A stretch of 61,164 bases of DNA from a virus (lineage: Duplodnaviria > Caudoviricetes). The notes under the pieces are model-generated. The model made no database searches. It was not told the DNA's origin and worked only from the letters and a program-made list of their open reading frames with translations. Below are positions 5,409 to 51,703 of this stretch, one piece after another. Where the stretch lies: positions 1 to 61,164 of IMG/VR virus record IMGVR_UViG_3300020477_000024. The stretch is one strand, 5' to 3'. The position numbers and the translations under genes are program-made. How positions within the stretch are numbered: the stretch's first letter is position 1; the number at the start of each line of letters is the position of its first letter.

Positions 5409-6152
5409 CTATACTGATCTGGAATTTTCTATTTCACTCTTATCTACTCCACCTAATTCTCCAATAACATTGGAATGCCCTACTCTCTGAACCACAACAT
5501 CATCCTTAAATCTATAAGCATTCAATTTTCTATTAGAATACAAGTGTCTAATATCTTCTCTCGGATGTTCGCAATATGTAGAAGCGATGTACTCATCAGT
5601 AGTTATCAAATTGTTTTTAATTCCCGAAGAAAATAATTCTTTAGCAGAATCTTTTGTTACTATATACGCATGTGAATTATATGTATAACCAACCTTCTCT
5701 ATAATATCATCTACTTCTTCAGTCTCATACCCCTTCACCGGCCAACATCCCAAATAAAACAAATCACAATCATTGGTTTTCATAAAATTTGATGCAATAA
5801 ACAAACTTTCTCGAAAATCTCTGCCTACAAACTTTACATCATCTTCTAGGACTAAAGCAAACTGATAATTATCATAAATATGCTTCCAAATATTATAATG
5901 ACCGAGCAAATTGCATATTGATCCCATTTTCAAATCTCTTGAATACCAAAAATTGTTACTATCTTCCATCTTCCATGAATCGTAGGTAAAAAACCCTTCC
6001 GAATTCAAATCTTCCAAAGAAACGTTTTGATGATCTATCGCATCAAATACATATATATCAAATTCCTTCTGAAAGGGGGATAATAAATTGATAATAAAAT
6101 CCCTTCTCTCTACCAACCTAGTCAACGAAACACAATATATAGCGTCTATCAT
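5409..6152 (-). CDS. Glycosyltransferase family 25, procollagen galactosyltransferase (COLGALT)-like
   Basis: YCVSL.R..ERR, DAID, HYNIWK, LVLEDDV, DLFYLG, HAY and DEYIASTYCEHP motifs. Confidence 0.85.
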   Translation of the reverse strand: MIDAIYCVSLTRLVERRDFIINLLSPFQKEFDIYVFDAIDHQNVSLEDLNSEGFFTYDSWKMEDSNNFWYSRDLKMGSICNLLGHYNIWKHIYDNYQFALVLEDDVKFVGRDFRESLFIASNFMKTNDCDLFYLGCWPVKGYETEEVDDIIEKVGYTYNSHAYIVTKDSAKELFSSGIKNNLITTDEYIASTYCEHPREDIRHLYSNRKLNAYRFKDDVVVQRVGHSNVIGELGGVDKSEIENSRSV

Positions 6153-6164
6153 GATAATAACGAA

Positions 6165-6743
6165 TCATCTAATAGCATACAAATCATATTCTTCTTCCCA
6201 TATTATATAACCATTTTTTTCTAATAAATAAAGTATTGGTTGTTTTATCTCACCATTATAATAATTCTCTGTCGATTCCCAATGAGTCGTTTCCATTTTT
6301 ATTACTTTCGGCAAAACATCCCAACTATAATTGAGTACAATCGGTAATTCACAACCTTCAACATCAATTTTTAAAAAATCTATTTGTGTAATACTATATT
6401 TTTTGATAAGTGAATCTAAAGTCATAGTTTTAACTATGGTTTTTCTTTCAAAATCCTTCCATTGTGGATTTGGCACAAAACCATTTATTTCATTATTATA
6501 AGAACCAATGCCACGAACCCACTGTTTATTTATTTTTTCAGATAGTAAAGGATCGTAATAATAAAACTCAGTTTCACCATCATAAGTACTTATCGCAGAA
6601 TTTTCAAAAATAACATTCGGATGTGTTTCTAAATTGTTCAAATATTCACTAACTGGTTCAACAATAATACCATACCAACCATTTTTTGCTAATGGAAGTA
6701 ACGTATCAAAATCGCATGAACCAATTTCAATAAAAAAATTCAC
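6165..6743 (-). CDS. FkbM-family SAM-dependent methyltransferase
   Basis: FIEIGS, IVEP, NSAIS, TLDSL and IDFLKIDVEG motifs. Confidence 0.85.
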   Translation of the reverse strand: MNFFIEIGSCDFDTLLPLAKNGWYGIIVEPVSEYLNNLETHPNVIFENSAISTYDGETEFYYYDPLLSEKINKQWVRGIGSYNNEINGFVPNPQWKDFERKTIVKTMTLDSLIKKYSITQIDFLKIDVEGCELPIVLNYSWDVLPKVIKMETTHWESTENYYNGEIKQPILYLLEKNGYIIWEEEYDLYAIR

Positions 6744-6746
6744 TAA

Positions 6747-6950
6747 TTATCCCCCTAACAATTCACTCTCTTTCAAAGAAATAGTTTTAGTTTCATCCTT
6801 TTCTGCCCACCATTCAACTGGTATAAGTATTGATGCCAAACTATCAGTTGAAATGGATGAAATCTTTTCATTGAGTTCAGTTTCATTATTTGCTTCGATA
6901 ATACCTTCATGGTTATAAGTTGTTTCTAATATTACTTTATAAAGTGCCAT
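6747..6950 (-). CDS. Small hypothetical protein (DpnD/PcfM-like pattern)
   Basis: Likely start is MALYKV at 6950 with a GAGG RBS. Pattern YKV.LETT.....IEA. Confidence 0.65.
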   Translation of the reverse strand: MALYKVILETTYNHEGIIEANNETELNEKISSISTDSLASILIPVEWWAEKDETKTISLKESELLGG

Positions 6951-6964
6951 TTTTTCCTCTCTTT

Positions 6965-8983
6965 TTATTTTTTGTTGCAAAATGTTATAAGAACATATCT
7001 TGTACCTGACATAACTGCTCTTGCACCATGTTTGTGTGTAATTGTTGGATGAACTACGACTTCTCCAACTGACTTATCAACTAAATGATTTTGTCTTGGA
7101 AACCAAGTTCCCCCACCTGTATAGTCGTTGTTTAAACCAACAACAAAGGTATAATCAGACGCATCATGATGACACGACAAATCAGTTTGATAATTTTCTG
7201 ATTCTAAATCATACTTTACTATAAAAGATTCATTTTTCATATTACCCACAAATCCTTGTAATCCCCAAATAGAAGATACTACTGGATGTGCGTATTCGTC
7301 TAATATTGTATCCCATATATCACCATAACCAAAACTGCTCAATAAAATATCATGCGTAGGATAATTTACATGCCTATCTGTTGTCCATTGACCATATTGT
7401 TCTGCCTTTTCGATTAATTCACTACAAAACTCTTCATTCAGGAGAGGCCAACTATACAATTCAAGACCAGTTCCGATAGAATCAACATATAATTCCCATT
7501 GCTTTCCTCTTATTCTTTGATCTATATATTTATCTATATCTTCATTCATCACATCATCAATATTATTACTTTCAATAGTCGAAAATCTATCAGATCCTTT
7601 TCTCAAAAATTCAAAATCGTTTACATGAAACGTTCGTTCCACGTCTTCATTTTTTCCCTTTCCCGTTTCTATTAGAACATCCTTTAGTTTTATTTCATAT
7701 TTAAATTCTAAATCTGGATTTACCCAACCACTTGACCAAGTTCTAAATATACCAACACCATCTTCGAGTTTATCGTTATCAGACCAAGTTATTTCTCCTT
7801 CTTGAAAAACTCTAAAATCATACTCTATAGCACCACTAACATCAAATGGACTACGACCATACCACATAGTAATTTTCTCTGGATCTGAAAAATCCATATC
7901 ATATAAAGCACTTGATCTATCTAGCATGTTATAGTCAATAGACCAATTTCCATTATAAACCAGATCATTATATAACTCAACACATTTTTTAGGATGATGT
8001 TTGTTAATGACATATTCTCTGCCAATTGAATCGTGTTCCATAAACCAAGCATTCATTAACGCATGTTTGATACTTTCATTTTCTAAAGTACATCGTGCAA
8101 TTTTCGGATTCTCCGATTTATAATCACCCTGTTCCGTTGCAACCACATTTGCCCCACAACTCAGTGCTTCCAAATATACCAAGCCAGGTACATCCATCTT
8201 GGTAGTCATGGCAAATACCCTACATCTTCGATAGTAATCTATAAGTTCATCAAAAGGAATTGACTTATCCAACCACGTTATTCTTCCATCACTCTGACCA
8301 ATTTGATGTTTTAATGCTTCAACTTCATCTTTCTCATCTGGATTACCAATAACTACCAATTTCAATTTCAAATCATTACATGCCTTTGCAAGATAACGAT
8401 GTCCTTTTATGTTCTGAACCGCAGCTGCACATAATACAAAATCCTCTCTTTCAATAGAATCATCAATTGTCAAATAATCCGTATTGATTGGAACAGGAAC
8501 TGTTAAAATCTTATGCGATAAATGACTCCATTGTTCTTTTGCTTGATCTGTCTGTGCAACAGTTACTAATGATTGTTCAATGCATTTAGAATAAACATCA
8601 TAAAAGGCTGATCCTTTTTCTTCTAATAAAGGATTGTTATCATGGATATTTAAAATGTACGGTATACCCATCCTAATCATTCTCAAACATTGATACCAAA
8701 AACTACAATGTATAAAATCATAATCTTTTGCATTTTCTTGAGTTAATTCCCCATCAAACAACAAATCTACCTGATAACCCAATTTTTGCAAATAATCCAT
8801 ATGGTTGTAAATAACTCTACCTACAGCATTTATACTGCCCATTCCCCTTTCTTTACTTGTCGGATCTTGCCAAGAAGGATGTTTTAAATATAATATTTTC
8901 CTCTTTTCAGTATTTTGTACCCCTAACGGTTTCAATTCACCATTTACCAATTTCATAAATCTGTTATCATCTAATATTTTCAT
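6965..8983 (-). CDS. GT4 glycosyltransferase fused to a PLOD-type 2OG-Fe(II) lysyl hydroxylase domain
   Basis: N-terminal GT-B motifs (KGH, DVPGLVYLEALSCG). C-terminus WPLLNEEFCSELI..AEQYGQW...PTHDI...FIVKY...HHDAS...YTGGG..F...HP.ITHKHGA....GTRY matches the procollagen-lysine hydroxylase pattern. Confidence 0.85.
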   Translation of the reverse strand: MKILDDNRFMKLVNGELKPLGVQNTEKRKILYLKHPSWQDPTSKERGMGSINAVGRVIYNHMDYLQKLGYQVDLLFDGELTQENAKDYDFIHCSFWYQCLRMIRMGIPYILNIHDNNPLLEEKGSAFYDVYSKCIEQSLVTVAQTDQAKEQWSHLSHKILTVPVPINTDYLTIDDSIEREDFVLCAAAVQNIKGHRYLAKACNDLKLKLVVIGNPDEKDEVEALKHQIGQSDGRITWLDKSIPFDELIDYYRRCRVFAMTTKMDVPGLVYLEALSCGANVVATEQGDYKSENPKIARCTLENESIKHALMNAWFMEHDSIGREYVINKHHPKKCVELYNDLVYNGNWSIDYNMLDRSSALYDMDFSDPEKITMWYGRSPFDVSGAIEYDFRVFQEGEITWSDNDKLEDGVGIFRTWSSGWVNPDLEFKYEIKLKDVLIETGKGKNEDVERTFHVNDFEFLRKGSDRFSTIESNNIDDVMNEDIDKYIDQRIRGKQWELYVDSIGTGLELYSWPLLNEEFCSELIEKAEQYGQWTTDRHVNYPTHDILLSSFGYGDIWDTILDEYAHPVVSSIWGLQGFVGNMKNESFIVKYDLESENYQTDLSCHHDASDYTFVVGLNNDYTGGGTWFPRQNHLVDKSVGEVVVHPTITHKHGARAVMSGTRYVLITFCNKK

Positions 8984-8997
8984 TTATAAAAATCCTT

Positions 8998-9717
8998 TTA
9001 TATTGGTTCAGTCTGACTTCCACCCTGATCCAGTTGTACAATTGCATCTTCTTTTATAGAATATGCCTTCAATTTTCTCTCAATATTATATAAATTCCTC
9101 AAATCCTTTCTTGGATGTTCGTCATAACAAGTAGTTAAAAACTCATCAATCACTATCATATTACTTGTATAATTTGAATTCAATAAAATACGAATTGCTT
9201 CTGACTTAATAATATAGGCATGAGTAGTATATTTGAAAAACACTCTATTAACATATTTTGTAAATGAATCCCAATCATAACACGATCCTCCCAAATAAAA
9301 CAAATCATAATCATATTCATTTTTGAAATCGGAAAAAACATTTATCCAGTTATTATTTTTAATTTCAATATCATCTTCTAAAACTAAAATTTCGGAAAAC
9401 CCCATTTCATATGCCTTTTTCCATATTAAGTAATGACTAATACTACAACCCATTTCCCCTTTCGTAACTGGTCTATTCCAGAACTTGAAAATAACTTTTT
9501 TATTTATAACAGGAAAATAAGTCCAGTTTTGATCGGTTTTATTATTTTTATATTCATAAAAACCCGAAGCATAAAAATCTTCCCAATCTAATACCATTCC
9601 ATCAATGGCATCAAATACATATACTGGTGCAAAATCCATTTTTGATAATATTTCAATAACATTTTTTCTACGTTCTTCCATTCTTTCTAAACTTACACAA
9701 AATATAGCATCAACCAT
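8998..9717 (-). CDS. Glycosyltransferase family 25, COLGALT-like
   Basis: RPVTKGEMGCSISHYLIWK, LEDD, DLFYLG and DEFLTTCYDEHP motifs. Paralogue of 5409..6152. Confidence 0.88.
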   Translation of the reverse strand: MVDAIFCVSLERMEERRKNVIEILSKMDFAPVYVFDAIDGMVLDWEDFYASGFYEYKNNKTDQNWTYFPVINKKVIFKFWNRPVTKGEMGCSISHYLIWKKAYEMGFSEILVLEDDIEIKNNNWINVFSDFKNEYDYDLFYLGGSCYDWDSFTKYVNRVFFKYTTHAYIIKSEAIRILLNSNYTSNMIVIDEFLTTCYDEHPRKDLRNLYNIERKLKAYSIKEDAIVQLDQGGSQTEPI

Positions 9718-9729
9718 AATAAAAAGATG

Positions 9730-9975
9730 TTACTCCAATGGATTCTCCTCTGATATTTCTATAACAGAATTGGGTTTTACCCCATACCATTGAATTTCTT
9801 TGTGTCTCATATCCCAATCAAGACCCTCTTTTGTAGTACCAGAACCGAAACCCATACCATCTTTCAGATCTTTTGTTGCTTCATCAAGAGTTATCTTAGC
9901 AGAATTCAGATCCTCTGCTTCAATAGTTACTTCCTGATAAATAATCACCCCAACATCAAAACGAAATTTTGCCAT
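9730..9975 (-). CDS. Small hypothetical protein (DpnD/PcfM-like pattern)
   Basis: 81 aa, AAGGAG RBS, FRFDV......EVTIEAEDL..A. Confidence 0.7.
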   Translation of the reverse strand: MAKFRFDVGVIIYQEVTIEAEDLNSAKITLDEATKDLKDGMGFGSGTTKEGLDWDMRHKEIQWYGVKPNSVIEISEENPLE

Positions 9976-10012: not shown

Positions 10013-13000
10013 TTATGAATGTGATATACTTTGAGATTTAAATCCAATAACAGCTGAAGCCGTATTAGAACCATTATATGTTCCATCTCCTTTAAAAGAA
10101 GTTATAGTTGGAACAGTTGCGGTATTAAACGAAAAATTGAAAGTATGACTTGTATGATTTGACCAAGTACTTCCATCACTACCAGACGGTTTTACACCCT
10201 TCTGACCTTTTTGTCCTTTTTGACCTTTTTGACCAGAATCACCTGTTGCCCCTTTTGCTCCTTTACTTGAAGAAGGTGCAGGTTGTCCTTTTTCACCTTT
10301 ATCACCTTTGTCGCCAGGTGATCCATCACCAGCATTGGTAGCATTTTTTGTACCTTTATCACCTTTATCACCTTTATCACCTTTGTCGCCGGGATCTCCA
10401 TCACCAGCATTGGTAGCATTTTTTGTACCTTTATTTCCTTTATCACCTTTGTCGCCGGGATCACCTGTACCAGCATTGGTAGTATTTTTCGGGCCTTTAT
10501 CACCTTTATCACCTTTGTCGCCGGGATCACCTGTACCAAGATGTCCAGTATTTTTCGGGCCTTTATCACCTTTATTTCCTTTGTCGCCGGGAGCTCCTGT
10601 ACCAAGATTTCCCGAATTTTTACTTCCTTTATTTCCTTTATTACCCTTAGCACCAGCATCACCATCAAAACCTTTTACTCCAGCAAGTTCACTTCCATTA
10701 GCAGTATCATAAGCATAACTACCAGTTTTTTCACCAGCTGCATTTACTATTACAAAGTCGCCAGGAATTCCTTTGACCCCCTTCTCCGAGGTGTCGGCAT
10801 CTCTACCTTTAATTCCAGCAGTTGTTCTGCTATCCGATCCAACTACGAATTCTGTACGTCCAGTAATATTATCATTAGCATCAGTATGTACATATGGCCC
10901 ATGCTTACCTTTTAGACCCTTTTCTGAAGTGTCGGCATCTCTACCTTTAATTCCAGCAGTTGTTCTGCTATCCGATCCAACTACGAATTCTGTACGTCCA
11001 GTAATATTATCATTAGCATCAGTATGTACATATGGCCCATGCTTACCCTTCAAACCCTTTTCTGAAGTATCAGCATCACGACCCTTAATTCCAGCAGTTG
11101 TTGTGCTATCTGTGCCGACTACGAATTCTGTACGTCCAGTAATTGCATCATTAGCATCAGTATGTACATATGGCCCATGCTTACCCTTCAAACCCTTTTC
11201 TGAAGTATCAGCATCACGACCCTTAATTCCAGCAGTTGTTCTGCTATCCGATCCAACTACGAATTCTGTACGTCCAGTAATTGAATCATTAGCATCAGTA
11301 TGTACATATGGCCCATGCTTACCTTTTAGACCCTTCTCCGAGGTGTCGGCATCTCTACCTTTAATTCCAGCAGTTGTTGTGCTATCTGTGCCGACTACGA
11401 ATTCTGTACGTCCAGTAATTGCATCATTAGCATCAGTATGTACATATGGCCCATGCTTACCCTTCAAACCCTTTTCTGAAGTATCAGCATCACGACCCTT
11501 AATTCCAGCATCTTTAGTACTCCCTGCTTCATGCTCAACTCTTGCATTGAGTGTGCCATCTTGTTTAGTAGTAACAAACGGGCCATGATGACCCTTAATA
11601 CCTTTTTCTGAAGTGTCGGCATCACGACCCTTAATTCCAGCATCTTTAGTACCACCAGATTCATGCTCAACTCTTGAATTCAAAGTTCCATCTTGTTTAG
11701 TAGTAACAAACGGGCCATGATGACCCTTAATACCTTTTTCTGAAGTATCAGCATCTCTGCCTTTAATTCCAGAATCTTTAGTACCACCAGATTCATGCTC
11801 AACTCTTGAATCCAAAGTTCCATCAGATTTAGTAGTAACAAACGGGCCATGATGACCCTTGATACCCTTTTCTGAAGTATCAGCATCATGACCTTTAACA
11901 CCAGATTGCTTGGTTCCATCAGTACCAATATTTTCATGTTCAATTCTTGCATTGAGTGTGCCATCTGATTTAGTGGTAACGTATGGCCCATGATGACCCT
12001 TGATACCCTTTTCTGAAGTATCGGCATCTACACCCTTAACTCCTGCCAATCCACTTCTACCACCAAGTCCTAAAACTGCTGTAAATGTTTGTCCACCACC
12101 CTTTGCTGGAGCAGATATAGTCGGAACCGAAGAATAACCAGAACCAGAATTCAATACTTTTACATCAGTTACTTGTCCTGTATTATCTACAACCAAATGT
12201 CCTCTAAACCCAGAACCTCCACCACCAGTTGCTTCAATAATTTCATGATTTTGATAATCTGTACTATGAGAACCAGAAACAGTTACACTTCTAACTTTAT
12301 CTGGATCACCCGATTGTACATTATCTTGCCAATTTCCCTGAAAACCTTTAGTTCCTTTACTTCCTACACTTCCACCCTCGCCGGGATCTCCAGAAGCAGG
12401 TACTAATAAATTAATTTCACCCTTTCCACTAATCTCAGTACCATCAAGATTGAACATTCTTTTGCTTATGGTATTTGAACTTCCATCATATTTTATAGAT
12501 TCAAATCTTCCTTCATCAACCTTTGAGATATTATGAACAATTTGTTTTCCATCTTGTGTCCAAGTTATTCTAACTTCTGGATATGATGTAACAACATTGT
12601 TAGTAACACTATAGAAAATATTAGAATATATCCTCACTTCTTTATTTGCTGTACCAGAAACAACTGCCCAAGTTGAACCAGAAGTAGAAGAAGAATTGTA
12701 TGAACCAGAAGAATTTAAAACATCAACTGCAACTGTTACAGCACCTGTACTAGTTGTAATGAGTTTTATGACTGAAGAAGTGGATTCCCCACTTGCCAAT
12801 GTTTGTCTATCACCCTTAAAATGCCATTGAGTTTTACCAGAAGTTGTTGCACCATCAGCACCTTGCATACCTTTACTAATAGTTATAACCTTGTCAATTG
12901 TAACATTGCCAGAATAACTATGAGGAACTATACCATGAGTTTTGGCAAATGCGTTTAATATGGTTGCTCTGATCGTAAATGTTTCAGTTTCAGAAGTCCA

Positions 13001-16000
13001 ACTTCTATATGTTGAAACATCGTTTGTATTGAATGAATATGAACCATCATCCCTTGAAATCTGAAAAGTCAATCCACCTTGAGTTTTTCTGGAAATGGTA
13101 GTAGTACTATCCGTACTTGAAGGATTTTCGGTAACAGTAGCAGACTCACCGACAAGATGATATTGTACGTTTGTTTCTGATGCATCATCATACTTTACAC
13201 CAGCAAAGTAAACATCAGCATTTCCACCAGCATCAGCAGCCCAAGTATTACCAAAATCTGTACCATCTACTTTTTTTGTACCATCACCATTAGTAGGTAA
13301 TAGCACTGGATCATTGGTTAGTCTAAATTCTACTGCCTTTGACCCTGCTCTTGACCTATTAACATCTAAAACTTTTGCTAAAACGGTTGGTGTTGCAGTA
13401 TTACTAGAGTCTGCAACACCAAGACCATAACGTTCCGAAGTTGTAGAACCCAAAACTGCTTCAAGAATAAATTCGGTATGATCTTTGCTAGGATTCCAAG
13501 CAGAATCTTCTTCTAAAATAAAATATCTATGTGTTGCGTAACGGTTTGTGGTAGTTTCAGGCGTAGTTACTTTATTTTCACCAGCACTATCAGAAATCTG
13601 CACTTTCAAATTATCCGAAGTTGCACCATTAGATTTAACTCTAAAATAAATATAATCAGTAGCAGATGTATGAAAAGAATTTTTGGCAATGTAACCACCA
13701 TCATCCTGTCTTACACGAATTTCCAATTCACCCGTATATTTGCTATGACCTGAAGGATAACTTCCCAATTTAAAATCAAGTGGTACTCTGGTTCCTTGTG
13801 GATCGTCATCAGGAGCAAAATCACCTTTGGTATTTGTTGCAATTATAACTGGATCACGTTTTAAACGAAAATCTACTGCACTACCAACTCGACTTTTGCT
13901 AATAGTAAATTTTCTTGTTACAGTTACATCTTCTGTACTTGTTCCAGCAATCAATCCCCATACTTTTGCTTGGGCATTAGCAATAATTGCCTGTACCGTA
14001 ACTTCAGTGGCATCTGTATTCCAAATTGAACTGGAACTTTCGTTTTGAAATTGGTAGATCCCTTGATCGTCTATTACAAAACTGAAATTTTTAGTTGCGT
14101 TGGTAGTGGTTACATTACCCCCATCATCTGTTGTAGTTGTTCCCCAATTAGAAGCGGGATCGGGCCCATCATGGACAGTATCATTGACATTTGCTCTAAA
14201 TTGAACATGCTCGGATGTTCTTTGGTCAGCACCATTTATGATTACTTGGAACTGACCAGTAGTACCACTATAATCAATTGGATCACCAACTAAATTTTTT
14301 CGTCCTTCTGGGCCTGTAACGACAACCACAGGATCATTGGTCAAACGACCTTCAATGGCATTTTCACCACGTTTAGTTTTTGTAATATCCAGAACTTTTA
14401 TTAGTGAAATATCCTGATAAAGTTGTGAACCTTGTGTCCAAGTTGGAGCAGTACTATTAGCAGTAAATTCTTCACCATTGGCATTTGTTATCTCATTCCC
14501 ACTAGGATATAAAACACCAGAATTGGAAAAATCATCACCTGTTTCGTAATCGAGAATGACATATCTTTTTCCATTCTCTAAAGTTCCCGATCTTTTTGTT
14601 TCAATAATCCCTTGATTATATGCTTCTGAAGCAGATATAGTTGCCCTTATCGTAAACCTTTCTGTATCAGATGTCCAAGAAGAATTTTCAGATAACGTAT
14701 ATACACCCGTAGATGCAATTGAAACCTTTAAACCATTTCGAGTTGCCTGTGCATCATATGCATCTGATTGTACTGACCATTCTTCTCCAGCCGCACTATT
14801 ACTACTTGGATTTTGTCCTGTATTTGCTTGAGTTGCTTTGTAAATAGTAGCAGAATGTAATACATAATCATTTGGTTGATAGGCAGTACTATTATCCCAT
14901 GCTGGTGTATCATTTAAAATTTCATATGTAACAGCACTATCAGGAATAGATTGACCACCAACAACTGCCTGTGCTTCACCACTTTCATAATTGGGTTGTC
15001 CTGATGTACCAAATAGAGCAGTTGTTCCGTCTGCTCTTTTCAACCCTTGTGTATCAGTATCAATGTTAATTGGATCACGACTCAATCGCAAATCACCAGA
15101 ACTACGACCTTTGATATTTTTAGTAAACGGTTGATTGATAATCTTTTCTATAACCCTGCCATCAAACCGTTGAGAAGTTATAGTGAATTTTATATTAGCA
15201 GTTCTTTTATTCGTAGTCATTGCAGACGCATCTGCAACTTTTGCATTTTTAAAACTTATTGGATTGCTTCCACCAGAATTTGCATCCTCGTCAGTTATTG
15301 CACCAACAGTTATATTAGTTGCAGTTGTGGCAATTTTGAATTGACCATTGGCAAGTGTAGGATTTCCCTCAATAAAAGTTAATGGTCTATTTCCATCATA
15401 AACTTCAATAAATGTTCCACTACCATCATATGTTACAACCGCAGAAGATTCATCTGTTTGTAGTAATACAGACGGATTGGTAAGAAGAACCGTTACACCA
15501 TCAGTTCCGGCCTGTGTACCAAAAACAACTGTAGAATCTTCTGCCAAAACAACATCATTTCCAGTACCTTCATAGGTTTTAACTACATATCTTCTACGAA
15601 TAAATTTGGATGTCGGGGAAGTTGCGGTTGCGGTATGAGTGGTACTCTTTGCCTTGAATGCAGGATCTTTGGTTGTATTGCTAAAACCAGCATCTATTGC
15701 TGAAAATGTTGCACTATTTGTACCATCCGTAATAGTGTCTGAACCCGAAAAACTACCGACAATATCCGAAATCAAAAACTTAACATTACTTCCTGAAACT
15801 GTCTGGTAGACGATTGCATGATTATCATCGTCTTTGTAAATTTTAGTTCCAACTGTCCAAACAGATGGGGATGGTGCAGACGTAAGAGTTAATTCTTTGG
15901 TTTTTGCTATTTCATCTATTTGTGTATGAGCATTGACAAAACCTTGAGGTGTAGCAGTCAAAATATATTGACTTGGATCAGCAGAAGAACCACCAGCATT

Positions 16001-17014
16001 ATAACCAATTTGATAATCATCAGATTCTAATGATACATTTGTACTAACTCTATTTTTATCATACGTTATATTTCGATTGACAGTAACCGTATCACCATTT
16101 GATTTGGTTAATATAATCGGAATAGTAGCAACAATCGTATCAACACCATCACCACCGACAAAATCCCTTGCTGTTATCTTTGCTTGGTCAGGTGTTTGAG
16201 ATGTATCACTCTCTTTGTCTAAAGTAATACTTACGTTCGATTGACTTATAGTTCCTATGGTATATCTAGGTGTAATACTAGTATTGGTTGTATATTGTGC
16301 TAATTTTGCACCAACATAAACCTTAACATTGCTATCTGCATTATCAGCACCTAGAGTATCTGTAACAACACCCTGCGGAGTAGATGTAAAAGAAAAATAT
16401 TCTTTTTCTACAAAAGCATTAATTGCATCTTCACCAGCAGAAACATAAGAAAGAACCAATGGCATATTATCCGTTAGTGTCAGATTTGAGACTAACAGAT
16501 TGACTTTGAACCGATAGTAAACACTATTTCCACCAGCAGCTGCATATTTGGTAGAATCCAAAATCGAAAACAGCATAAATTGTGTAGCATCTGCTTTTTT
16601 ATAAAGTCTAAATGTACCAATAATTGAAGCAGATACTGTTCCGATTGTATCTAAAAAATTGTCTAATACAACACCATTATTATCCGTATTATCTAAATAA
16701 AGATAATGATCTCCAGATGGTGTATCAAAACCACCACTTCCACTAGCTGCAACATTAGAACCCAAACTTTGTTCAGTAGGATGTCCTGTTATCGTTGTAT
16801 TATGCCATTGATATTCAAATGTTACTCCACCAGTGGGTATTTGAACGTTCCCTAAATCTGATCTCGCAAGTTCATAACCACCTTTTGTACTACCATCATG
16901 AAACCGTATTGCTTCATCTCCACTATTTGTCTGCATAGTGAATTCACCTTGCTTACCAGTGTAAGCAAGGTTTTGATCTTTAGTACCCCGTTTAACTTTG
17001 AATGTTATGGACAT
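10013..17014 (-). CDS. Giant tail fibre with tandem repeats and C-terminal collagen-like region
   Basis: 2333 aa. N-terminal KRGT...G..GE....HDGST.GG fibre motif, a CBM5/12-like segment (WDNSTAYQPNDYVLH...YKA), repeated RL..DP domains, DADTSEKG repeats and G-X-K runs. Confidence 0.88.
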   Translation of the reverse strand: MSITFKVKRGTKDQNLAYTGKQGEFTMQTNSGDEAIRFHDGSTKGGYELARSDLGNVQIPTGGVTFEYQWHNTTITGHPTEQSLGSNVAASGSGGFDTPSGDHYLYLDNTDNNGVVLDNFLDTIGTVSASIIGTFRLYKKADATQFMLFSILDSTKYAAAGGNSVYYRFKVNLLVSNLTLTDNMPLVLSYVSAGEDAINAFVEKEYFSFTSTPQGVVTDTLGADNADSNVKVYVGAKLAQYTTNTSITPRYTIGTISQSNVSITLDKESDTSQTPDQAKITARDFVGGDGVDTIVATIPIILTKSNGDTVTVNRNITYDKNRVSTNVSLESDDYQIGYNAGGSSADPSQYILTATPQGFVNAHTQIDEIAKTKELTLTSAPSPSVWTVGTKIYKDDDNHAIVYQTVSGSNVKFLISDIVGSFSGSDTITDGTNSATFSAIDAGFSNTTKDPAFKAKSTTHTATATSPTSKFIRRRYVVKTYEGTGNDVVLAEDSTVVFGTQAGTDGVTVLLTNPSVLLQTDESSAVVTYDGSGTFIEVYDGNRPLTFIEGNPTLANGQFKIATTATNITVGAITDEDANSGGSNPISFKNAKVADASAMTTNKRTANIKFTITSQRFDGRVIEKIINQPFTKNIKGRSSGDLRLSRDPINIDTDTQGLKRADGTTALFGTSGQPNYESGEAQAVVGGQSIPDSAVTYEILNDTPAWDNSTAYQPNDYVLHSATIYKATQANTGQNPSSNSAAGEEWSVQSDAYDAQATRNGLKVSIASTGVYTLSENSSWTSDTERFTIRATISASEAYNQGIIETKRSGTLENGKRYVILDYETGDDFSNSGVLYPSGNEITNANGEEFTANSTAPTWTQGSQLYQDISLIKVLDITKTKRGENAIEGRLTNDPVVVVTGPEGRKNLVGDPIDYSGTTGQFQVIINGADQRTSEHVQFRANVNDTVHDGPDPASNWGTTTTDDGGNVTTTNATKNFSFVIDDQGIYQFQNESSSSIWNTDATEVTVQAIIANAQAKVWGLIAGTSTEDVTVTRKFTISKSRVGSAVDFRLKRDPVIIATNTKGDFAPDDDPQGTRVPLDFKLGSYPSGHSKYTGELEIRVRQDDGGYIAKNSFHTSATDYIYFRVKSNGATSDNLKVQISDSAGENKVTTPETTTNRYATHRYFILEEDSAWNPSKDHTEFILEAVLGSTTSERYGLGVADSSNTATPTVLAKVLDVNRSRAGSKAVEFRLTNDPVLLPTNGDGTKKVDGTDFGNTWAADAGGNADVYFAGVKYDDASETNVQYHLVGESATVTENPSSTDSTTTISRKTQGGLTFQISRDDGSYSFNTNDVSTYRSWTSETETFTIRATILNAFAKTHGIVPHSYSGNVTIDKVITISKGMQGADGATTSGKTQWHFKGDRQTLASGESTSSVIKLITTSTGAVTVAVDVLNSSGSYNSSSTSGSTWAVVSGTANKEVRIYSNIFYSVTNNVVTSYPEVRITWTQDGKQIVHNISKVDEGRFESIKYDGSSNTISKRMFNLDGTEISGKGEINLLVPASGDPGEGGSVGSKGTKGFQGNWQDNVQSGDPDKVRSVTVSGSHSTDYQNHEIIEATGGGGSGFRGHLVVDNTGQVTDVKVLNSGSGYSSVPTISAPAKGGGQTFTAVLGLGGRSGLAGVKGVDADTSEKGIKGHHGPYVTTKSDGTLNARIEHENIGTDGTKQSGVKGHDADTSEKGIKGHHGPFVTTKSDGTLDSRVEHESGGTKDSGIKGRDADTSEKGIKGHHGPFVTTKQDGTLNSRVEHESGGTKDAGIKGRDADTSEKGIKGHHGPFVTTKQDGTLNARVEHEAGSTKDAGIKGRDADTSEKGLKGKHGPYVHTDANDAITGRTEFVVGTDSTTTAGIKGRDADTSEKGLKGKHGPYVHTDANDSITGRTEFVVGSDSRTTAGIKGRDADTSEKGLKGKHGPYVHTDANDAITGRTEFVVGTDSTTTAGIKGRDADTSEKGLKGKHGPYVHTDANDNITGRTEFVVGSDSRTTAGIKGRDADTSEKGLKGKHGPYVHTDANDNITGRTEFVVGSDSRTTAGIKGRDADTSEKGVKGIPGDFVIVNAAGEKTGSYAYDTANGSELAGVKGFDGDAGAKGNKGNKGSKNSGNLGTGAPGDKGNKGDKGPKNTGHLGTGDPGDKGDKGDKGPKNTTNAGTGDPGDKGDKGNKGTKNATNAGDGDPGDKGDKGDKGDKGTKNATNAGDGSPGDKGDKGEKGQPAPSSSKGAKGATGDSGQKGQKGQKGQKGVKPSGSDGSTWSNHTSHTFNFSFNTATVPTITSFKGDGTYNGSNTASAVIGFKSQSISHS
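10195..10680 (-). repeat. Interrupted collagen-like Gly-X-Y repeat, Lys in the Y position
   Basis: GDKGDKGDKG, GNKGNKG and GQKGQKGQKG runs, in units of about 60 nt. Confidence 0.9.
10680..12045 (-). repeat. Coding tandem repeat, 10 units of about 132-141 nt
   Basis: DADTSEKG occurs 10 times. A 138-nt period is seen (10861 vs 10999), with two unit types. Confidence 0.92.
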
Positions 17015-17023
17015 ATTCTATCC

Positions 17024-17827
17024 TCATATGATACGTTTTTTTGCTACCCAACCCAACATTTTCTTTGCCTTTCTATTATCCAAACATATCCTCTCGACCT
17101 CATTTTTCTTTTTAGGAAAATAAATAGGATTTGTATGTAGACAACCATATTTGTTTACTAATTGATTTAATGAAACTTCTTCTCCAGTTCCTATATTAAA
17201 AATTTCATTTTTTCCTTTATGTAATGCTAAAACATTTGCCTCTACAACATCATCAATATGAACATAATCTCTTGTAGTTTCTCCTGTACCATAAATTCTT
17301 GGTTCTGGATTTTTGCGAAGAATGTAATATATTCCTTTTTTGGCATCCTCACCCCAAACATTAGCATATCTTAAAATTGTATATGATATTTCTGATAATT
17401 TAATATATTTTTCAGCAACCAATTTACTTAATCCATATGGTGAAATCGGATTAGGCAAATCAGTTTCTAAAACGGGTAAATTTTCAGGATTTCCATAACA
17501 AGCACCACCAGAAGATGCATAAATTATCTTTTTGACATCAAACATCTTACAAACCTGTAAAATTTTCAATGTCGCAAGTATATTCTGTTTAGCATCATAT
17601 TCTGGATTTAACAATGCTTTTCTAACATCAGATTGGGCGGCATGATGACTGATAACATCTATACCATTTCCCGATAACAAATTTTGCAAGTCGGGTATAT
17701 ACCTATCACTACAAATATCTATTTCCAAACCATTATTTACTTCATATACATTATGACCTAATTCTTTATATCGTTTTACAACCCGACTTCCAATAAAACC
17801 CATATGCCCCGTAACTAATATATTCAT
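17024..17827 (-). CDS. galE: NAD-dependent epimerase, UDP-glucose 4-epimerase-like (extended SDR)
   Basis: VTGHMGFIG, HHAAQ, ASSGGACYG, SPYGLSK (YxxxK), LRYANV and RDYVHIDD motifs. Confidence 0.8.
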   Translation of the reverse strand: MNILVTGHMGFIGSRVVKRYKELGHNVYEVNNGLEIDICSDRYIPDLQNLLSGNGIDVISHHAAQSDVRKALLNPEYDAKQNILATLKILQVCKMFDVKKIIYASSGGACYGNPENLPVLETDLPNPISPYGLSKLVAEKYIKLSEISYTILRYANVWGEDAKKGIYYILRKNPEPRIYGTGETTRDYVHIDDVVEANVLALHKGKNEIFNIGTGEEVSLNQLVNKYGCLHTNPIYFPKKKNEVERICLDNRKAKKMLGWVAKKRII

Positions 17828-30960: not shown

Positions 30961-31246
30961 CTGTATCGAAAATCATCTCCCCATCCTCATCCTGTGCTGG
31001 ATTTAACCAAATAGAATATGGATGGTTGATCCTTTCGTCCTCTTTTAGACCACTTTTGATTATAACATGCTTATCACAATCAATTTCAACATTTCCTCTA
31101 AATTTCAATACCATATCAGTATTAAATACAATCCGATTGTTTTCTTCATCATATTCTATAATATTTTTGTCTACTAACGTAGAAATTGCATCTATGACTT
31201 CACGATCTATTTCATTAAATATTTTTAGTAACTTTTGCATTAACAA
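30953..31246 (-). CDS. Hypothetical protein
   Basis: 97 aa, overlapping the gp5 stop and the next start. Confidence 0.65.
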   Translation of the reverse strand: MLMQKLLKIFNEIDREVIDAISTLVDKNIIEYDEENNRIVFNTDMVLKFRGNVEIDCDKHVIIKSGLKEDERINHPYSIWLNPAQDEDGEMIFDTDA

Positions 31247-33159
31247 TCATCCTCACAATCTGATAGTTTGGGTGTAGCACCCTTTGTTCCTTTCATACCT
31301 ACCATACCTTTCATGCCCCGTTCAACAATCGGATCATCATTGACTTTTTGTGTTCCATCTACATTTCCAAATTCTGCTATATTCGTAACAATATCATCAT
31401 CTACAAAATCAGGAACTTTTCCATCAACAATCATCTTAACTGCTTCCTCGAAGGAAGATACAGTTGAAATATTTCCATCCTTGTCAGTGAATGATAAAGG
31501 ATTTTCTAATACATCCAACATATCAAATTCACTATCTTGCATTACTATTGATTTTGCGTTATCGTCTGTTAGCAAAGAATCTCTCATCATTTGCATCATA
31601 GCTGCACTTGCATCATCCAAATCACTTTCTTTAGATTGATTCAACATCATTTTCAACAAGTCTGCTAAAGATAATGCCTTTAATAAAAACTTCAACCAGT
31701 TTAATTGCAACAAACTCTTACACATAGTGAAATTTCCCATCATTTTAAATGATGCAAAAATTGCCTGTCTCATTGCAACTAATGGATTCGGAAATGAAAA
31801 ATCTGGTAATTGTGGTAATTCTGGTATCTCTGGCAAAGAAGGCAAAGCATCTCTCAATTCAGCATTTGCTGTATCTCTTGCTGTCTTTACTTTATCTGAT
31901 ATAGAAGTTTCTATATCTGTTATCTTCCCGATTGCCCCATCTATTGCACCTACCGATTTAGCAAGTTTGGATTTAACTTCCGATTTGATACTATCTGCTA
32001 ATTTTTCTGCGGAATCAACTACATCTCCAACCTCATTTGCCACATCTGTTATTGCATTGGTAACAGGATTTTCAGGTGTAGTTGCATCTTTTATATTTCC
32101 AACTGCATTTGAAGTTTCAGCAAAAGAATTTGTTGCCCCTGCTAAACTAGAATTGGCATTAGTAATACTACCTGAGAGATTCCCCAAAGCACCAGTTGAT
32201 GGCAAACCCGAAGTTGTCATACTTGGAAGATCAGGGCCCATCACACCTTCTGGGGGTATCCCTGCTGGTAAAACAAATGGTTGACCTGTTGAACCATGCA
32301 TTATTGCACCACCTAATTTAGGATCAGTACTCAAAAATGGAGCAGATACAAATGCACCAGTTGGTGATTCCAATAAAACACCTAAATTTCCTTTAATCCT
32401 AACTTGTGTTCCTTCTAAACGAATATATTTTCCTTTGATATTGACATCACCATCAGCAGTAACATTGACATTCCCTTCTGCGTACAAATGTTTAGATTTC
32501 CCATCAACTATCAACTCATAATCATCACCCTTGACTTTAACCAAACGATGACTACCAGTTATAACTTCCATTGTTCCATCTTTATGAATTCTAGTTATTT
32601 TTTCATTATTAGGTGTGTCATCAACCTCGAAAACATGACCTGATTGACTTTCTTCAACCTTGTTATACGGATATTCACCTTTTGATAAACTTGGTTCACT
32701 ATATGGTCGATTCATTTTACCAGCAACTGCAATACCTGTTTTGGGTGTATGGTCTGAAATATATGTATCTTCGTCTTCACCCCTTGATAAACGATTGGTA
32801 TTTACTTCCCCTGTGGGTATTTCTCTTTTTCCACCCCAACTCGGAGCATTCTCTGGTGGTGTTGGATCATCCGCAGTCTTATAACCAGCATCAATAATGT
32901 GTGTCATTATTGGTTGCTGTGCATTTTTTCCATCCGCAAAGAACCCCATAACCCATGTACCAACTGCGGGCCCAATGGGTGAATCACTTGGACGACTATT
33001 AATAGGCATTGCTGGATAGGCAAAAGGTAAATCTGAAGTAGGAATCTGTGCAGTATCATCAGAATGATACCCCAAAATTCTAACTTTAACACGACCCATC
33101 TTTAACGGGTCGGTTAGATCTTCAACTTTACCTTTCCACCATACAAATTCTGGATTCAT
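31240..33159 (-). CDS. gp5: Baseplate hub / central spike gp5 (no lysozyme domain)
   Basis: WW.G.VED..DP..MGRVKVRI.G.H, G.WV.GFF.DG..AQQP, YPYN.V.ES.SGH..E.DDTP..E and H..GT motifs. Confidence 0.9.
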   Translation of the reverse strand: MNPEFVWWKGKVEDLTDPLKMGRVKVRILGYHSDDTAQIPTSDLPFAYPAMPINSRPSDSPIGPAVGTWVMGFFADGKNAQQPIMTHIIDAGYKTADDPTPPENAPSWGGKREIPTGEVNTNRLSRGEDEDTYISDHTPKTGIAVAGKMNRPYSEPSLSKGEYPYNKVEESQSGHVFEVDDTPNNEKITRIHKDGTMEVITGSHRLVKVKGDDYELIVDGKSKHLYAEGNVNVTADGDVNIKGKYIRLEGTQVRIKGNLGVLLESPTGAFVSAPFLSTDPKLGGAIMHGSTGQPFVLPAGIPPEGVMGPDLPSMTTSGLPSTGALGNLSGSITNANSSLAGATNSFAETSNAVGNIKDATTPENPVTNAITDVANEVGDVVDSAEKLADSIKSEVKSKLAKSVGAIDGAIGKITDIETSISDKVKTARDTANAELRDALPSLPEIPELPQLPDFSFPNPLVAMRQAIFASFKMMGNFTMCKSLLQLNWLKFLLKALSLADLLKMMLNQSKESDLDDASAAMMQMMRDSLLTDDNAKSIVMQDSEFDMLDVLENPLSFTDKDGNISTVSSFEEAVKMIVDGKVPDFVDDDIVTNIAEFGNVDGTQKVNDDPIVERGMKGMVGMKGTKGATPKLSDCEDDC

Positions 33160-44632: not shown

Positions 44633-45544
44633 TTATCCTTGTAGAAGTTGAAGTACACCAGCAGATAGTTGTTGTGCTTGTGCCATCAACGCAATTGCTG
44701 TTTGTTGTTCAATTCGATAACCTGTCAATTTTGCCATTTCAGATGCTTCATCGAAGTCATTGATAGTGGAAATTGCTTCTTCGTTTATTCCAATCATTCT
44801 CTCCATATGTGAAATAGTAAAGTCAAACCGTTCGATTTTAGAAATCTGGTTAGACCGTTCTAATTCTAACGTATCTAGTGCGTCCTCTAATCGAGAAACA
44901 GCATTTTGTGCATTCTCTACACTATTAAGTGTTGCAACGGGAACATTAATTTCATCACCTTCAGCATAAACACCACCATTTCCATTGTCTTGACCTATTA
45001 ATGGATTATTTGCTTCTAATGTATGAGTATATGCACCAATACCCAAACCACTCAAAGTCAAATCACCTAATGAAACATCAATCGTTTGATCTTCATTAGC
45101 ACCATCAATAGTAATTTGCCTAGAACCAAAGGAACCGTCAATCAATTCAGTTCCGTCATATTCGGTATTCTTTGCTACATAATCAATCTCTTTTAACAGT
45201 TCATTGAATTCTGTAACAAGACTTGCACGATGCGTATCTGTTATCTGGTCATCCTGTGCTTTAGTTGCCAGTTCTTTTAATTTGGTTACAACTGATGTTA
45301 TCGAATCCGTACCAGCAAGTGCTGTCTGTAACAAATCCTGATTTGTCTTGACAACTCTATTGGCAGTCTGTAAAGTATGAATGGTATTATTAATTCTACC
45401 CAACTTTACTTTATCAGCAGAACTTAGGTCTGCTGTTCCTGATGCCAACTTTTCCATGCTCTTTTCGATCATTTTAGTTGCTTCTTGATACCGACCTAAT
45501 GTTTTTGCTGTCAAACCACTTAGCATACAATTCTCCGCTTTCAT
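44633..45544 (-). CDS. Flagellin-like protein
   Basis: SMEKLASG, KLKELATKA, R.SL..EF.EL..EID..A.NT.YDG..LIDGS, AQ.A...L..ALD, S.I.D.D.A.EMA.L, Q.A.A.MAQA and VLQLL cover the flagellin N- and C-terminal helical domains. Confidence 0.9.
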   Translation of the reverse strand: MKAENCMLSGLTAKTLGRYQEATKMIEKSMEKLASGTADLSSADKVKLGRINNTIHTLQTANRVVKTNQDLLQTALAGTDSITSVVTKLKELATKAQDDQITDTHRASLVTEFNELLKEIDYVAKNTEYDGTELIDGSFGSRQITIDGANEDQTIDVSLGDLTLSGLGIGAYTHTLEANNPLIGQDNGNGGVYAEGDEINVPVATLNSVENAQNAVSRLEDALDTLELERSNQISKIERFDFTISHMERMIGINEEAISTINDFDEASEMAKLTGYRIEQQTAIALMAQAQQLSAGVLQLLQG

Positions 45545-49472: not shown

Positions 49473-50246
49473 CTATTTCTCCCTCTTTGCATAAAAAACA
49501 TATTTTTCTTCCCCACCTTGCATTTGCCTTTGTCTGCTCACAACAGTGTGTTTATCAAACCTGTCAGTAAGTAATTTAGACTTTTCTTCAAAGGTATCAG
49601 TAGGATAAAAAGAGCAATCATGTAACTCTCCTACAAAAAGACCAATATCATCTGATGTCAATGAAGTCTTTTTAAAAAAATCGTATTCTGCTTCTTGAAT
49701 ATCCAACTTCAAAATATCTATATAATCAATTTCTAAAAAATTCATAATATCTTCTATCTTATACACATCTATACCTTCGTCTTTATGTATATACGGTTCA
49801 TCCATCAGAAGACTTTCTTGATAATATTTCTCAACCTTTGTATCGTAGTAACCCATTGTTTCTCCAACAAACTTGCTAGAAGTTTTGGTATACTCATTTC
49901 TGGTAAAATATTTTGGTTTCTTATCACCATACCAGATTCCACCTTCTATAAAGATTGAATTGTTTTTAGATACTTGTTGTATATTTTCTTTTGCTATTTC
50001 CAGAGAATAAAAATTTGGTTCAATTAAAACCGTCAAGGAATCTGGCCATAAAGATTTTGCCACATAACTAAATGCACCTATATGACTCCCACAATCAAAA
50101 ATCACTTTAGGTATTGAATTTATAATATTTTTATCCCTCAGACCATATTGATCTTCTATAACATTCCTTTGGAAAACATCCATATCATCAGGTTGATTTA
50201 CTTCATGAGCATCCACAAAAAAATCATACCCATCTATTTTTTTCAA
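49473..50246 (-). CDS. FkbM-family methyltransferase
   Basis: IFDCGSHIG.F, IEPN, IDILKLDIQ.AE and GELH motifs; TTG start overlaps the upstream TGA. Confidence 0.75.
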   Translation of the reverse strand: MKKIDGYDFFVDAHEVNQPDDMDVFQRNVIEDQYGLRDKNIINSIPKVIFDCGSHIGAFSYVAKSLWPDSLTVLIEPNFYSLEIAKENIQQVSKNNSIFIEGGIWYGDKKPKYFTRNEYTKTSSKFVGETMGYYDTKVEKYYQESLLMDEPYIHKDEGIDVYKIEDIMNFLEIDYIDILKLDIQEAEYDFFKKTSLTSDDIGLFVGELHDCSFYPTDTFEEKSKLLTDRFDKHTVVSRQRQMQGGEEKYVFYAKREK

Positions 50247-50419
50247 TCATCATCTCCTAACCCATCTAGGATTTTGTCTATTAATTTATCAACAATTTGC
50301 TCAATAAATTCATCACCTTCTTCAAGCAATTTCTCAATCATCTTATCAACTAAATCATCAGTGCTTTCCAAAATCTGTTCCAGCACCCGATTTGCGATTT
50401 CTCTGACTAGACCTTTCAT
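50243..50419 (-). CDS. Small acidic helical protein (58 aa)
   Basis: Hand translation MKGLVREIANRVLEQILESTDDLVDKMIEKLLEE...; GAGGTG RBS. Confidence 0.7.
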   Translation of the reverse strand: MKGLVREIANRVLEQILESTDDLVDKMIEKLLEEGDEFIEQIVDKLIDKILDGLGDDD

Positions 50420-50476
50420 ATTTCACCTCTCTGACCTTATACCTTCTAGGTTTAGGTTTATCCTTAATTTCACGAC

Positions 50477-50501
50477 AAAAAATGGGGTATAACCACCCCA
50501 T
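50477..50501 (-). terminator. Intrinsic terminator after the HldE kinase gene
   Basis: ATGGGGT-ggttat-ACCCCAT followed by TTTTT on the minus strand. Confidence 0.65.
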
Positions 50502-50533
50502 ATATTTAGTTGACCCTATAATGTTACTTATTC

Positions 50534-51487: not shown

Positions 51488-51683
51488 TTTTCTTTAACCA
51501 CCTTGTAACCTCAGTATTTTTCTCAATCCAAGAGATGGCCTCTTGTTTGTTTCCCATTACAGTTACTAATCTATGATCTCCTGTGTTGGCACGAACTGTC
51601 CAAAATTTCTTTTTCCCGTACCCTACACTTTCGTGCCTTAAACAATATAGGGGAACTTCGTCATCTCCAAAAAAGTTCTTCAT
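51462..51683 (-). CDS. Hypothetical protein
   Basis: Likely start MKNFFG at 51683 with AAGGAG RBS. Confidence 0.65.
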   Translation of the reverse strand: MKNFFGDDEVPLYCLRHESVGYGKKKFWTVRANTGDHRLVTVMGNKQEAISWIEKNTEVTRWLKKNEKSRCYR

Positions 51684-51703
51684 TTCTGTTTTGTCTCCTT
51701 TTA

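Follow-up and report, generated by a model that had tools for sequence, protein, structure and literature searches.

The virus record IMGVR_UViG_3300020477_000024 of IMG/VR (61,164 bases, with a completeness that CheckV puts at about 34%), the whole of which we refer to as the window, encodes two glycosyltransferases of family GT25, here called GT25-A and GT25-B. Between their genes lies a gene for a protein that joins a GT4 glycosyltransferase to a lysyl hydroxylase (LH), and close upstream is a very large tail fibre rich in Gly-x-Lys-Gly (G-x-K-G) sites. These genes probably encode a pathway in which the phage converts lysine to hydroxylysine (Hyl) and then to glycosyl-Hyl on its own fibre, a reading that we favour with some reserve. 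What our data establish is the homology of these proteins, the conservation of their catalytic residues and a gene linkage that recurs in other phages. The initial annotation of the window had described the GT25 pair as paralogues with eukaryotic COLGALT-type signatures; that observation is real and, on what is comparative evidence alone, more interesting than first stated. The LH fusion and the G-x-K-G fibre, which the annotation had missed, are its decisive context.

GT25-A (239 amino acids, minus strand, 8998..9717) and GT25-B (247 amino acids, minus strand, 5409..6152) both belong to Pfam PF01755, Glyco_transf_25 (7e-22 and 78.7 bits for GT25-A, 5e-12 and 46.5 bits for GT25-B, with a cut-off of 24), and they share 34.9% identity over 235 residues (E 6e-37). 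All motifs that had been quoted for the pair are present in the two translations: GT25-A contains NRPVTKGEMGCSISHYLIWK and IDEFLTTCYDEHP and has the C-terminal end GGSQTEPI, and GT25-B contains MGSICNLLGHYNIWK and TDEYIASTYCEHP and has the tail KSEIENSRSV. The strings given for the human collagen galactosyltransferase COLGALT1 were also accurate. The human chain has rpltkgelgcflshyniwk and deflpvmfdkhp, while SDTE is present in frog COLGALT1 (P0087) and corresponds to S569, D570 and T571 as named in PMC12987934. In phmmer comparisons with PDB chains, GT25-A matched human COLGALT1 in its C-terminal catalytic lobe, over chain residues ~302-512, at E 3.4e-22, mimivirus R655 at 5.6e-6 and a bacterial GT25 at 1.8e-5; GT25-B matched COLGALT1 at 9.7e-14 and the bacterial GT25 at 0.065. 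The predicted structure of GT25-B (pLDDT 92.6) was placed by Foldseek onto COLGALT1 9evj with a TMq of 0.79-0.84 and a root-mean-square deviation (rmsd) of 2.5-2.6 Å, compared with a TM of 0.60 for R655 and of 0.51-0.54, with an rmsd of 9-10 Å, for a bacterial beta-1,4-galactosyltransferase. COLGALT1 chains occupy Foldseek ranks 1-8 for both models, and animal COLGALT1/GLT25D1 (PDB 9evj, 9u7h, 8zgc) is the best match of GT25-A and GT25-B in both sequence and structure.

In COLGALT1, G408, G411 and C412 hold the uridine and E435-D436-D437 bind Mn2+ and the ribose; K470, Y494-W495 and Y561-T562 line a 'Hyl-Gly' cleft, and the pyrophosphate is held by two lid-loop residues, S569 and T571 (PMC12003778, PMC12987934). 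D522 is the catalytic base, E523 anchors the epsilon-amine of Hyl, C412 stacks on uracil and the T571A substitution nearly abolishes activity (PMC12987934). The three motifs singled out in the initial annotation are exactly these functional elements. By alignment, GT25-A keeps the canonical GExGC (as GEMGC), E-D-D (as LEDD), Y494, which is the Tyr of the YW motif, D-E, the HP element and S-x-T-E (as SQTE). GT25-B keeps E-D-D (again LEDD), Y494, D-E and HP. Its uridine helix reads GSICN, as had been noted, with S, C and N at the positions of E409, G411 and C412, and the replacement of GExGC by MGS[ILM]CN is common to the metagenomic relatives P0016, P0015 and P0051. The lid of GT25-B, the tail of which MAFFT misplaces, reads by eye as SEIE in place of SDTE, with Ile for T571; Ile occupies that column in 15/88 other family members. 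Each protein consists of one domain and has no N-terminal UDP-galactose-binding lobe.

Bacterial GT25 enzymes (the beta-1,4-galactosyltransferase of PDB 8xlz/8xkd; LgtB/Lex1 type) share the CAZy and Pfam family, GExGC, E-D-D and the catalytic Asp with the window proteins, but their C-terminal half is left unaligned by phmmer. We scanned reference genomes for bacterial counterparts and obtained 79 named GT25 loci (Enterobacter, Biostraticola, Kingella, Vibrio, Pseudoalteromonas, Hymenobacter, Massilia and others), of which 66 were near full length and were used, the 13 shorter ones being dropped; the set is defined by family, with functions unchecked, and includes no named LgtB or Lex1. The catalytic Asp is kept in all 66. 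In the E523 column, Glu is found in 13/13 rows of the clade that holds the window proteins, in 8/8 animal rows and in 1/66 bacterial rows; the Y494 column has Tyr in 3/66 bacterial proteins; and the HP element falls in a gap in 65/66. Scores to eight animal COLGALT C-lobes are 72-89 bits for GT25-A and 52-75 bits for GT25-B, compared with at most 46 and at most 40 bits, respectively, to the bacterial set.

For the phylogeny, an exhaustive phmmer search returned 2066 relatives at E<=1e-3, and the best 150, a biased sample, were analysed in a FastTree phylogeny of 157 domains and an IQ-TREE quick search of 76. GT25-A and GT25-B fall in one clade of 13-16 single-domain metagenomic proteins (support 99-100, starred), where GT25-A is sister to P0002 (99, starred) and GT25-B groups with P0016 and P0015 (96, starred); these two, P0051 and GT25-B form the B-type subtype. 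A recent duplication within this genome was considered and rejected: enforcing GT25-A and GT25-B as a sister pair gave p 1.7e-5 in the approximately unbiased (AU) test and a log-likelihood difference of 154, for a pair named after the tree had been seen, so that the two represent old subtypes. With a support of 91 (unstarred), their clade adjoins a group of 24 rows that includes 16 GT25-LH fusions. The animal COLGALT clade (95-99, starred), which includes named Rana and Holothuria proteins, leaves out both window proteins and groups at 96 (starred) with GT25-PLOD-GT(-LH) proteins, among them gp218 of cyanophage S-CAM9. This placement makes 'COLGALT-type' the right half of the earlier label, in keeping with features absent from ordinary bacterial GT25, and 'eukaryotic' the wrong half: judging by these trees, GT25-A and GT25-B are not eukaryote-derived. 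A phylogeny with LgtB and Lex1 had also been proposed; in our tree with 18 named bacterial GT25 proteins, a set without named LgtB or Lex1, GT25-A and GT25-B do not nest among the bacterial rows, which form one side of a branch with a starred support of 99. An LH domain is carried by 32 of the 163 GT25 sequences examined, and GT4, GT25 and LH are united in a single chain in P0126 and in P0021, a 42-member cluster. Two other architectures occur among the relatives. P0030, a metagenomic protein of 947 amino acids whose source name is 'autotransporter strand-loop-strand O-heptosyltransferase', combines GT4, GT25 and a heptosyltransferase-like GT9 domain and is a further protein-glycosylation context for this GT25 lineage; P0039 of Aureibacter tunicatorum (598 amino acids) combines Peptidase_C39, GT25 and an LH-like domain, an architecture that hints at the modification of exported peptides.

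The GT4-LH fusion (672 amino acids, minus strand, 6965..8983) carries a GT4 domain of the GT-B fold in its N-terminal part (residues ~86-290, 8114..8728). It is matched over residues 86-287 by Pfam Glycos_transf_1, Glyco_trans_1_4 and Glyco_transf_4 and also by GT4-type NCBIfam families. Residues 508-670 (6974..7462) match human LH3/PLOD3 at E 1.7e-20 to 2.4e-19 and the L230 LH domain at 1e-17 to 1.4e-16. All six PDB matches of this domain are LH3 or L230, with no other 2-oxoglutarate (2OG) oxygenase at E<=0.01. In an alignment to the L230 structure 6ax6, Y591, H605, D607, H652 and R662 of the fusion align with Y814, H825, D827, H877 and R887 of L230, whose 2OG and Fe ligands are named in PMC5802723, and all five residues are invariant in eight homologues; the position of the L230 dimer-lock leucine, L873, is occupied by Ile. 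Like LH3/PLOD3, the fusion holds a hydroxylase with conserved Fe and 2OG ligands and a glycosyltransferase in one polypeptide. Unlike it, the fusion lacks the PLOD glycosyltransferase and accessory domains: no match to PF25342, the PLOD-type glycosyltransferase family, was found in it, and the GT4 domain sits N-terminal to the LH domain instead. The middle region (residues ~340-500, 7484..7963) has no Pfam, PHROG or PDB match and is conserved in the full-length homologues, which are 49-72% identical to the fusion.

The proposed substrate is the fibre itself (2333 amino acids, minus strand, 10013..17014), which holds 47 G-x-K-G sites and 20 G-X-Y runs, compared with 0-3 such sites in eight other large open reading frames (ORFs) of the window. 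Residues 1548-2275 (10190..12373) form a collagen-like, Lys-rich region of 22-, 44- and 46-residue tandem repeats, encoded by DNA repeats of 66, 132 and 138 nucleotides (nt), and in its 83 triplets Lys stands 44 times at Y and five times at X. The C-terminal part matches the tail-fibre PHROGs 366 and 6320. X-Lys-Gly is the lysyl hydroxylase consensus (PMC9546862) and Xaa-Hyl-Gly that of COLGALT1 (PMC12987934). A short collagen-like run, GMKGMVGMKGTKGAT, also ends the gp5-like baseplate hub (minus strand, 31240..33159), which has three G-x-K-G sites and could be a second hydroxylase substrate.

From 17014 down to 2508 every gene lies on the minus strand, separated by gaps of 12-37 nt with one of 221 nt, in the order fibre, an ORF of 81 codons, GT25-A, the GT4-LH fusion, an FkbM-family methyltransferase, GT25-B, an ORF of 139 codons and a structural protein of 817 amino acids; 37 nt separate the end of the fibre gene from the gene that follows. 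Both GT25 genes are therefore part of a tightly packed same-strand module in the tail-fibre region. The FkbM gene (minus strand, 6165..6743) is matched by Pfam PF05050 at 1.4e-18 and NCBIfam TIGR01444 at 1.1e-13. Just beyond the fibre lies a GalE-like NAD-dependent sugar epimerase (minus strand, 17024..17827; Pfam Epimerase, 1.7e-42), whose best NCBIfam match is TIGR01179 galE at 1.7e-37 and 129 bits, below the cut-off of 262; it is a possible supplier of UDP-galactose. The window also encodes T4-type baseplate and tail proteins (gp6-, gp5-, gp25-, gp53- and gp48/54-like), and the nearest relatives of the gp6-like protein belong to the cultured Methylophilales phage Melnitz (41.7% identity) and the Pelagibacter phages Mosig and HTVC008M (37%). 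These tail genes and gp6-like relatives identify a marine T4-like myophage; DNA nearly identical to the window was not found in the phage collection.

The linkage recurs elsewhere. No relatives emerged when viral contigs were searched with single proteins, GT25-A or the fusion, or with an alignment of the B-type; the comparison draws on four metagenomic contigs with fusion relatives. A G-x-K-G-rich fibre C-terminus lies directly upstream in three of these four, and a GT25 gene is adjacent in three of four. Contig L014 has a fibre C-terminus (8 G-x-K-G in 97 residues), the 81-codon ORF, the fusion, FkbM, GT25 and a sulfotransferase (L014:3998-4669, Sulfotransfer_2, 3.4e-12), the last of which implies that the decoration chemistry differs among relatives. 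L016 has a fibre C-terminus with 17 sites, an ORF, GT25 and the fusion, and L017 a fibre C-terminus with 24 sites, the 81-codon ORF and the fusion. In cultured phages the same functions are found in one chain: S-CAM9, S-PRM1 and S-8S53, which form one lineage, and the Roseobacter phage CRP-6 encode a single GT25-PLOD-GT-LH protein (PF25342, 7.5e-47), for example gp218 of S-CAM9 (L003:11992-13833) and gp58 of CRP-6 (L004:7881-9650), both with PF25342. Its gene lies at most ~1.5 kb downstream of the tail fibre in the S-CAM9 group and one short gene after the fibre in CRP-6, and these fibres, among them gp222 of S-CAM9 and gp60 of CRP-6, have 22-26 G-x-K-G sites with no Lys at X. The proteins are annotated as 'hypothetical' or '2OG-Fe(II) oxygenase', and the PHROG to which S-CAM9 gp218, S-PRM1 gp162 and CRP-6 gp58 belong, phrog_61, is named '2OG-Fe(II) oxygenase'. 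As in the window, phage GT25 and LH stand near a K-rich collagen-like tail fibre; unlike there, the window GT25s are separate genes of a lineage other than the animal/PLOD-GT one, and GT4 takes the place of PLOD-GT. In S-CAM9, two more 2OG-Fe(II) oxygenase genes lie directly upstream of gp218; its collagen is GPTGPT-rich, and these two enzymes may be prolyl hydroxylases.

A further search of viral contigs looked for runs of four triplets of the form G-x-K or G-x-T; of the 235 loci that it returned, 208 hold a collagen-like ORF. An LH or GT25 match of at least 75 bits was found in 5/68 loci with at least ten Lys at Y and in 0/140 others (one-sided Fisher p 0.003), and at 40 bits or more the counts were 6/68 and 3/140 (p 0.035). 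These p values are to be read with the knowledge that the cut-offs were set after the data had been seen, that the flanks were short and uneven and that the loci are not independent.

From these data we infer the fibre substrate, the sugars, the order of the steps and the roles of GT25-B and FkbM as follows. The LH domain, an Fe2+/2-oxoglutarate dioxygenase, would act on the G-x-K-G repeats of the fibre's C-terminal third and hydroxylate their Y-position lysines to 5-hydroxylysine. GT25-A, as an inverting, Mn2+-dependent enzyme with an Asp base and a Glu that anchors the amine, would add the first beta-linked hexose to the hydroxyl; this sugar would probably be galactose, supplied by the nearby GalE-like epimerase. 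The GT4 domain, of a family classed as retaining in CAZy, would stand in for the PLOD-type glucosyltransferase domain and, together with GT25-B and its altered nucleotide pocket, may extend or diversify the glycan, which FkbM would then methylate. That GT4 adds a further sugar is suggested by its place, which is that of the PLOD glycosyltransferase domain in the cyanophage proteins. The relative with a single GT25, L014 (P0011), has a canonical GExGC, so that GT25-B looks like an added step. In E. coli, collagen co-expressed with mimivirus L230 becomes hydroxylated (PMC9546862), which indicates that the chemistry works in a bacterial cytoplasm.

Several observations weigh against this pathway, whose support is comparative throughout. 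Within the acceptor cleft, GT25-A and GT25-B lack the animal-specific residues K470 (Ser in GT25-A, Trp in GT25-B) and W495 (Thr and Asn), and H560-T562 is not alignable; in the human enzyme W495A abolishes activity (PMC12987934). GT25-B has, in addition, lost G411 and C412 and carries Ile at T571. The model of GT25-A is poor (pLDDT 65.6), although its Foldseek targets, led by 9evk (E 5.9e-14, TMq 0.62), rank as those of GT25-B do. Deep branches of the trees are weak (84-92, unstarred), and the rows, taken from the best 150 of 2066 relatives, are mostly metagenomic proteins without a name. The G-X-Y runs of the fibre are short (3-8 triplets) and its Pfam Collagen score of 20.6 bits is below the cut-off of 27.2, so that a triple helix is only putative. 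Lys at Y as a specific sign of a hydroxylase substrate had to be rejected: over the 14263 triplets of the 208 viral loci, Lys stands 2299 times at Y and 151 times at X, about 15-fold, Thr being the commonest residue at Y (5694), and the bias is therefore general in viral collagen-like ORFs. Moreover, the DNA retrieved for 63 of the 68 K-rich loci contains neither LH nor GT25. In contig L015, a GT25 gene and the fusion follow an ORF that is not collagen-like. The closest relative of GT25-A and GT25-B on a viral contig, L005 (IMGVR_UViG_3300009706_000033; 41-46% identity), stands among GT2, TOD1-like, GT4 and polysaccharide deacetylase genes, in a cluster that adjoins a tubulin/FtsZ-like gene, and neither an LH match nor a collagen-like ORF was found in the 20.7 kb retrieved (~10 kb on each side). 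Finally, polysaccharide clusters, too, typically contain GT4, FkbM and epimerase genes.

Among the other explanations, one, already raised in the initial annotation, gives GT25-B no catalysis of its own: it might serve GT25-A as a partner or scaffold, much as the inactive N-lobe does in COLGALT1. The human enzyme does pair a catalytic with a non-catalytic lobe (PMC12003778, PMC12987934), and the residues altered in GT25-B (E409, G411, C412 and T571) include C412 and T571, to which the work on the human enzyme assigns uracil stacking and near-complete loss of activity on substitution. GT25-B nevertheless keeps E435, D436, D437, D522, E523 and Y494 and resembles the catalytic C-lobe rather than the N-lobe, its variant motif is conserved in four orthologue-like rows, indicating selection, and, as noted, Ile at the T571 column is shared with other family members. 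A predicted complex of GT25-A and GT25-B scored 0.01 without controls and is uninformative about binding either way. We regard a scaffold role as unlikely. Because E-D-D and D-E are kept, the fold is COLGALT1-like and the change is shared by a conserved subtype, the altered motif more likely reflects a different donor or step than a dead enzyme, as far as sequence and predicted structure can tell.

The same chemistry could instead act on another target, namely Lys-Gly sites of another virion protein, such as the gp5-like hub with GMKGMVGMKGTKG, of a host protein or of a small peptide. The unusual acceptor-cleft residues, the three sites of the hub ORF, the peptide substrates hinted at by the Aureibacter protein and the L015 enzymes with no collagen-like neighbour would all fit such a target, but the adjacent fibre holds 47 sites in a conserved neighbourhood and the fibres beside the fused enzymes of S-CAM9 and CRP-6 are K-rich as well, which leaves this explanation improbable.

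Remodelling of the host surface is the third alternative: the GT25s, GT4, FkbM and the epimerase would act on host lipopolysaccharide (LPS), O-chain or capsule, for instance as a block to superinfection, and their proximity to the fibre would reflect the location of a hypervariable region. O-antigen clusters commonly include GalE-like, GT4 and FkbM genes, the Pfam family of GT25 is itself named for LPS biosynthesis, and L005 illustrates such a polysaccharide-type setting. In the pelagimyophage and cyanomyovirus literature, glycosyltransferases of the tail-fibre region have been read as O-chain modification (PMC7029224) and GT25 has been placed among cell-wall genes (PMC12801897). We judge this alternative improbable as well, in view of a protein-lysine hydroxylase with intact catalytic residues fused to GT4 and, in many relatives, to GT25 itself, of the E523, Y494 and HP features that set GT25-A and GT25-B apart from the 66 named bacterial enzymes, and of a linkage to G-x-K-G fibres in three separate phage lineages.

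The modification of collagen from Lys through Hyl to Gal/Glc-Hyl is viewed as a pathway of animals, with an outlier among the giant viruses. It is established in animals and partly in mimivirus, with L230, R699 and the candidate R655 (PMC9546862, PMC5802723, PMC12279948). The mimivirus set of L230 (LH and glycosyltransferase), R699 (Gal-Hyl glucosyltransferase) and R655 (putative GT25) resembles the window in that a virus with its own collagen-like proteins encodes a homologous LH and Hyl-directed glycosyltransferases. It differs in that the window belongs to a tailed phage of a bacterium, fuses LH to GT4 (GT-B) rather than to a PLOD-type GT-A domain and adds two stand-alone GT25s and a methyltransferase, and GT25-A matches COLGALT1 far better than R655 (3e-22 versus 6e-6). 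COLGALT1 in turn shares with GT25-A and GT25-B the catalytic-lobe fold, E-D-D, Asp-Glu, the Tyr of the YW motif and HP, and with GT25-A the Ser/Thr lid; the differences are the single-domain build of the phage proteins, the cleft residues discussed above, their position outside the animal clade and the altered uridine helix of GT25-B. Iyer et al. (2010) predicted that other dioxygenase families hydroxylate bacterial collagen-like and tail-collar proteins, followed by sulfation, the LH/GT25 system not being described in the accessible part of that paper (PMC2938197). A search of openly accessible articles turned up no account of tailed phages that encode lysyl hydroxylases or enzymes of the COLGALT type.

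As a wider and decidedly tentative proposal, tailed marine phages may make Hyl-O-linked glycans on their own collagen-like fibres. In this phage the glycan might be longer and methyl-capped, through a B-type GT25 with a new donor and GT4. The LH and GT25 toolkit might be a widespread microbial and viral invention with at least three architectures, related to animal COLGALT and PLOD, rather than an animal or giant-virus peculiarity. If the pathway is real, bacterial viruses, including the cultured and tractable S-CAM9, S-PRM1 and CRP-6, would join the kinds of virus that encode it, and the 'LPS' glycosyltransferases and '2OG-Fe(II) oxygenases' of marine myophage tail-fibre regions would be open to another interpretation. 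The enzymes would, by inference, work in a bacterial cytoplasm, a property that recombinant-collagen papers call missing for human glycosyltransferases (PMC9546862). The finding also bears on the origin of the animal enzymes.

Two small ORFs and two other regions of the window complete the description. The 81-codon ORF between the fibre and GT25-A (minus strand, 9730..9975) has no Pfam or PHROG match; its position is conserved in relatives, with a tblastn identity of 65% in L017 and 44% in L014, each time between the fibre C-terminus and the fusion. An ORF of 77 codons with a TTG start (minus strand, 6747..6980), located where 221 nt separate the fusion from FkbM, is a doubtful gene, with no Pfam family match and no counterpart in L014, where FkbM directly follows the fusion. 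At 49473..53094 (minus strand) lies a group of a second FkbM-family methyltransferase (49473..50246), a PfkB sugar kinase (50534..51487), ThyX (51704..52342) and a Mom-family protein (52336..53094), which suggests more capacity for sugar or DNA modification. Adjoining gp32, an ORF of 303 codons (minus strand, 44633..45544) matches Flagellin_N at 1.8e-15 and Flagellin_C at 4.2e-11, and a flagellin-like protein encoded by a phage is unusual.

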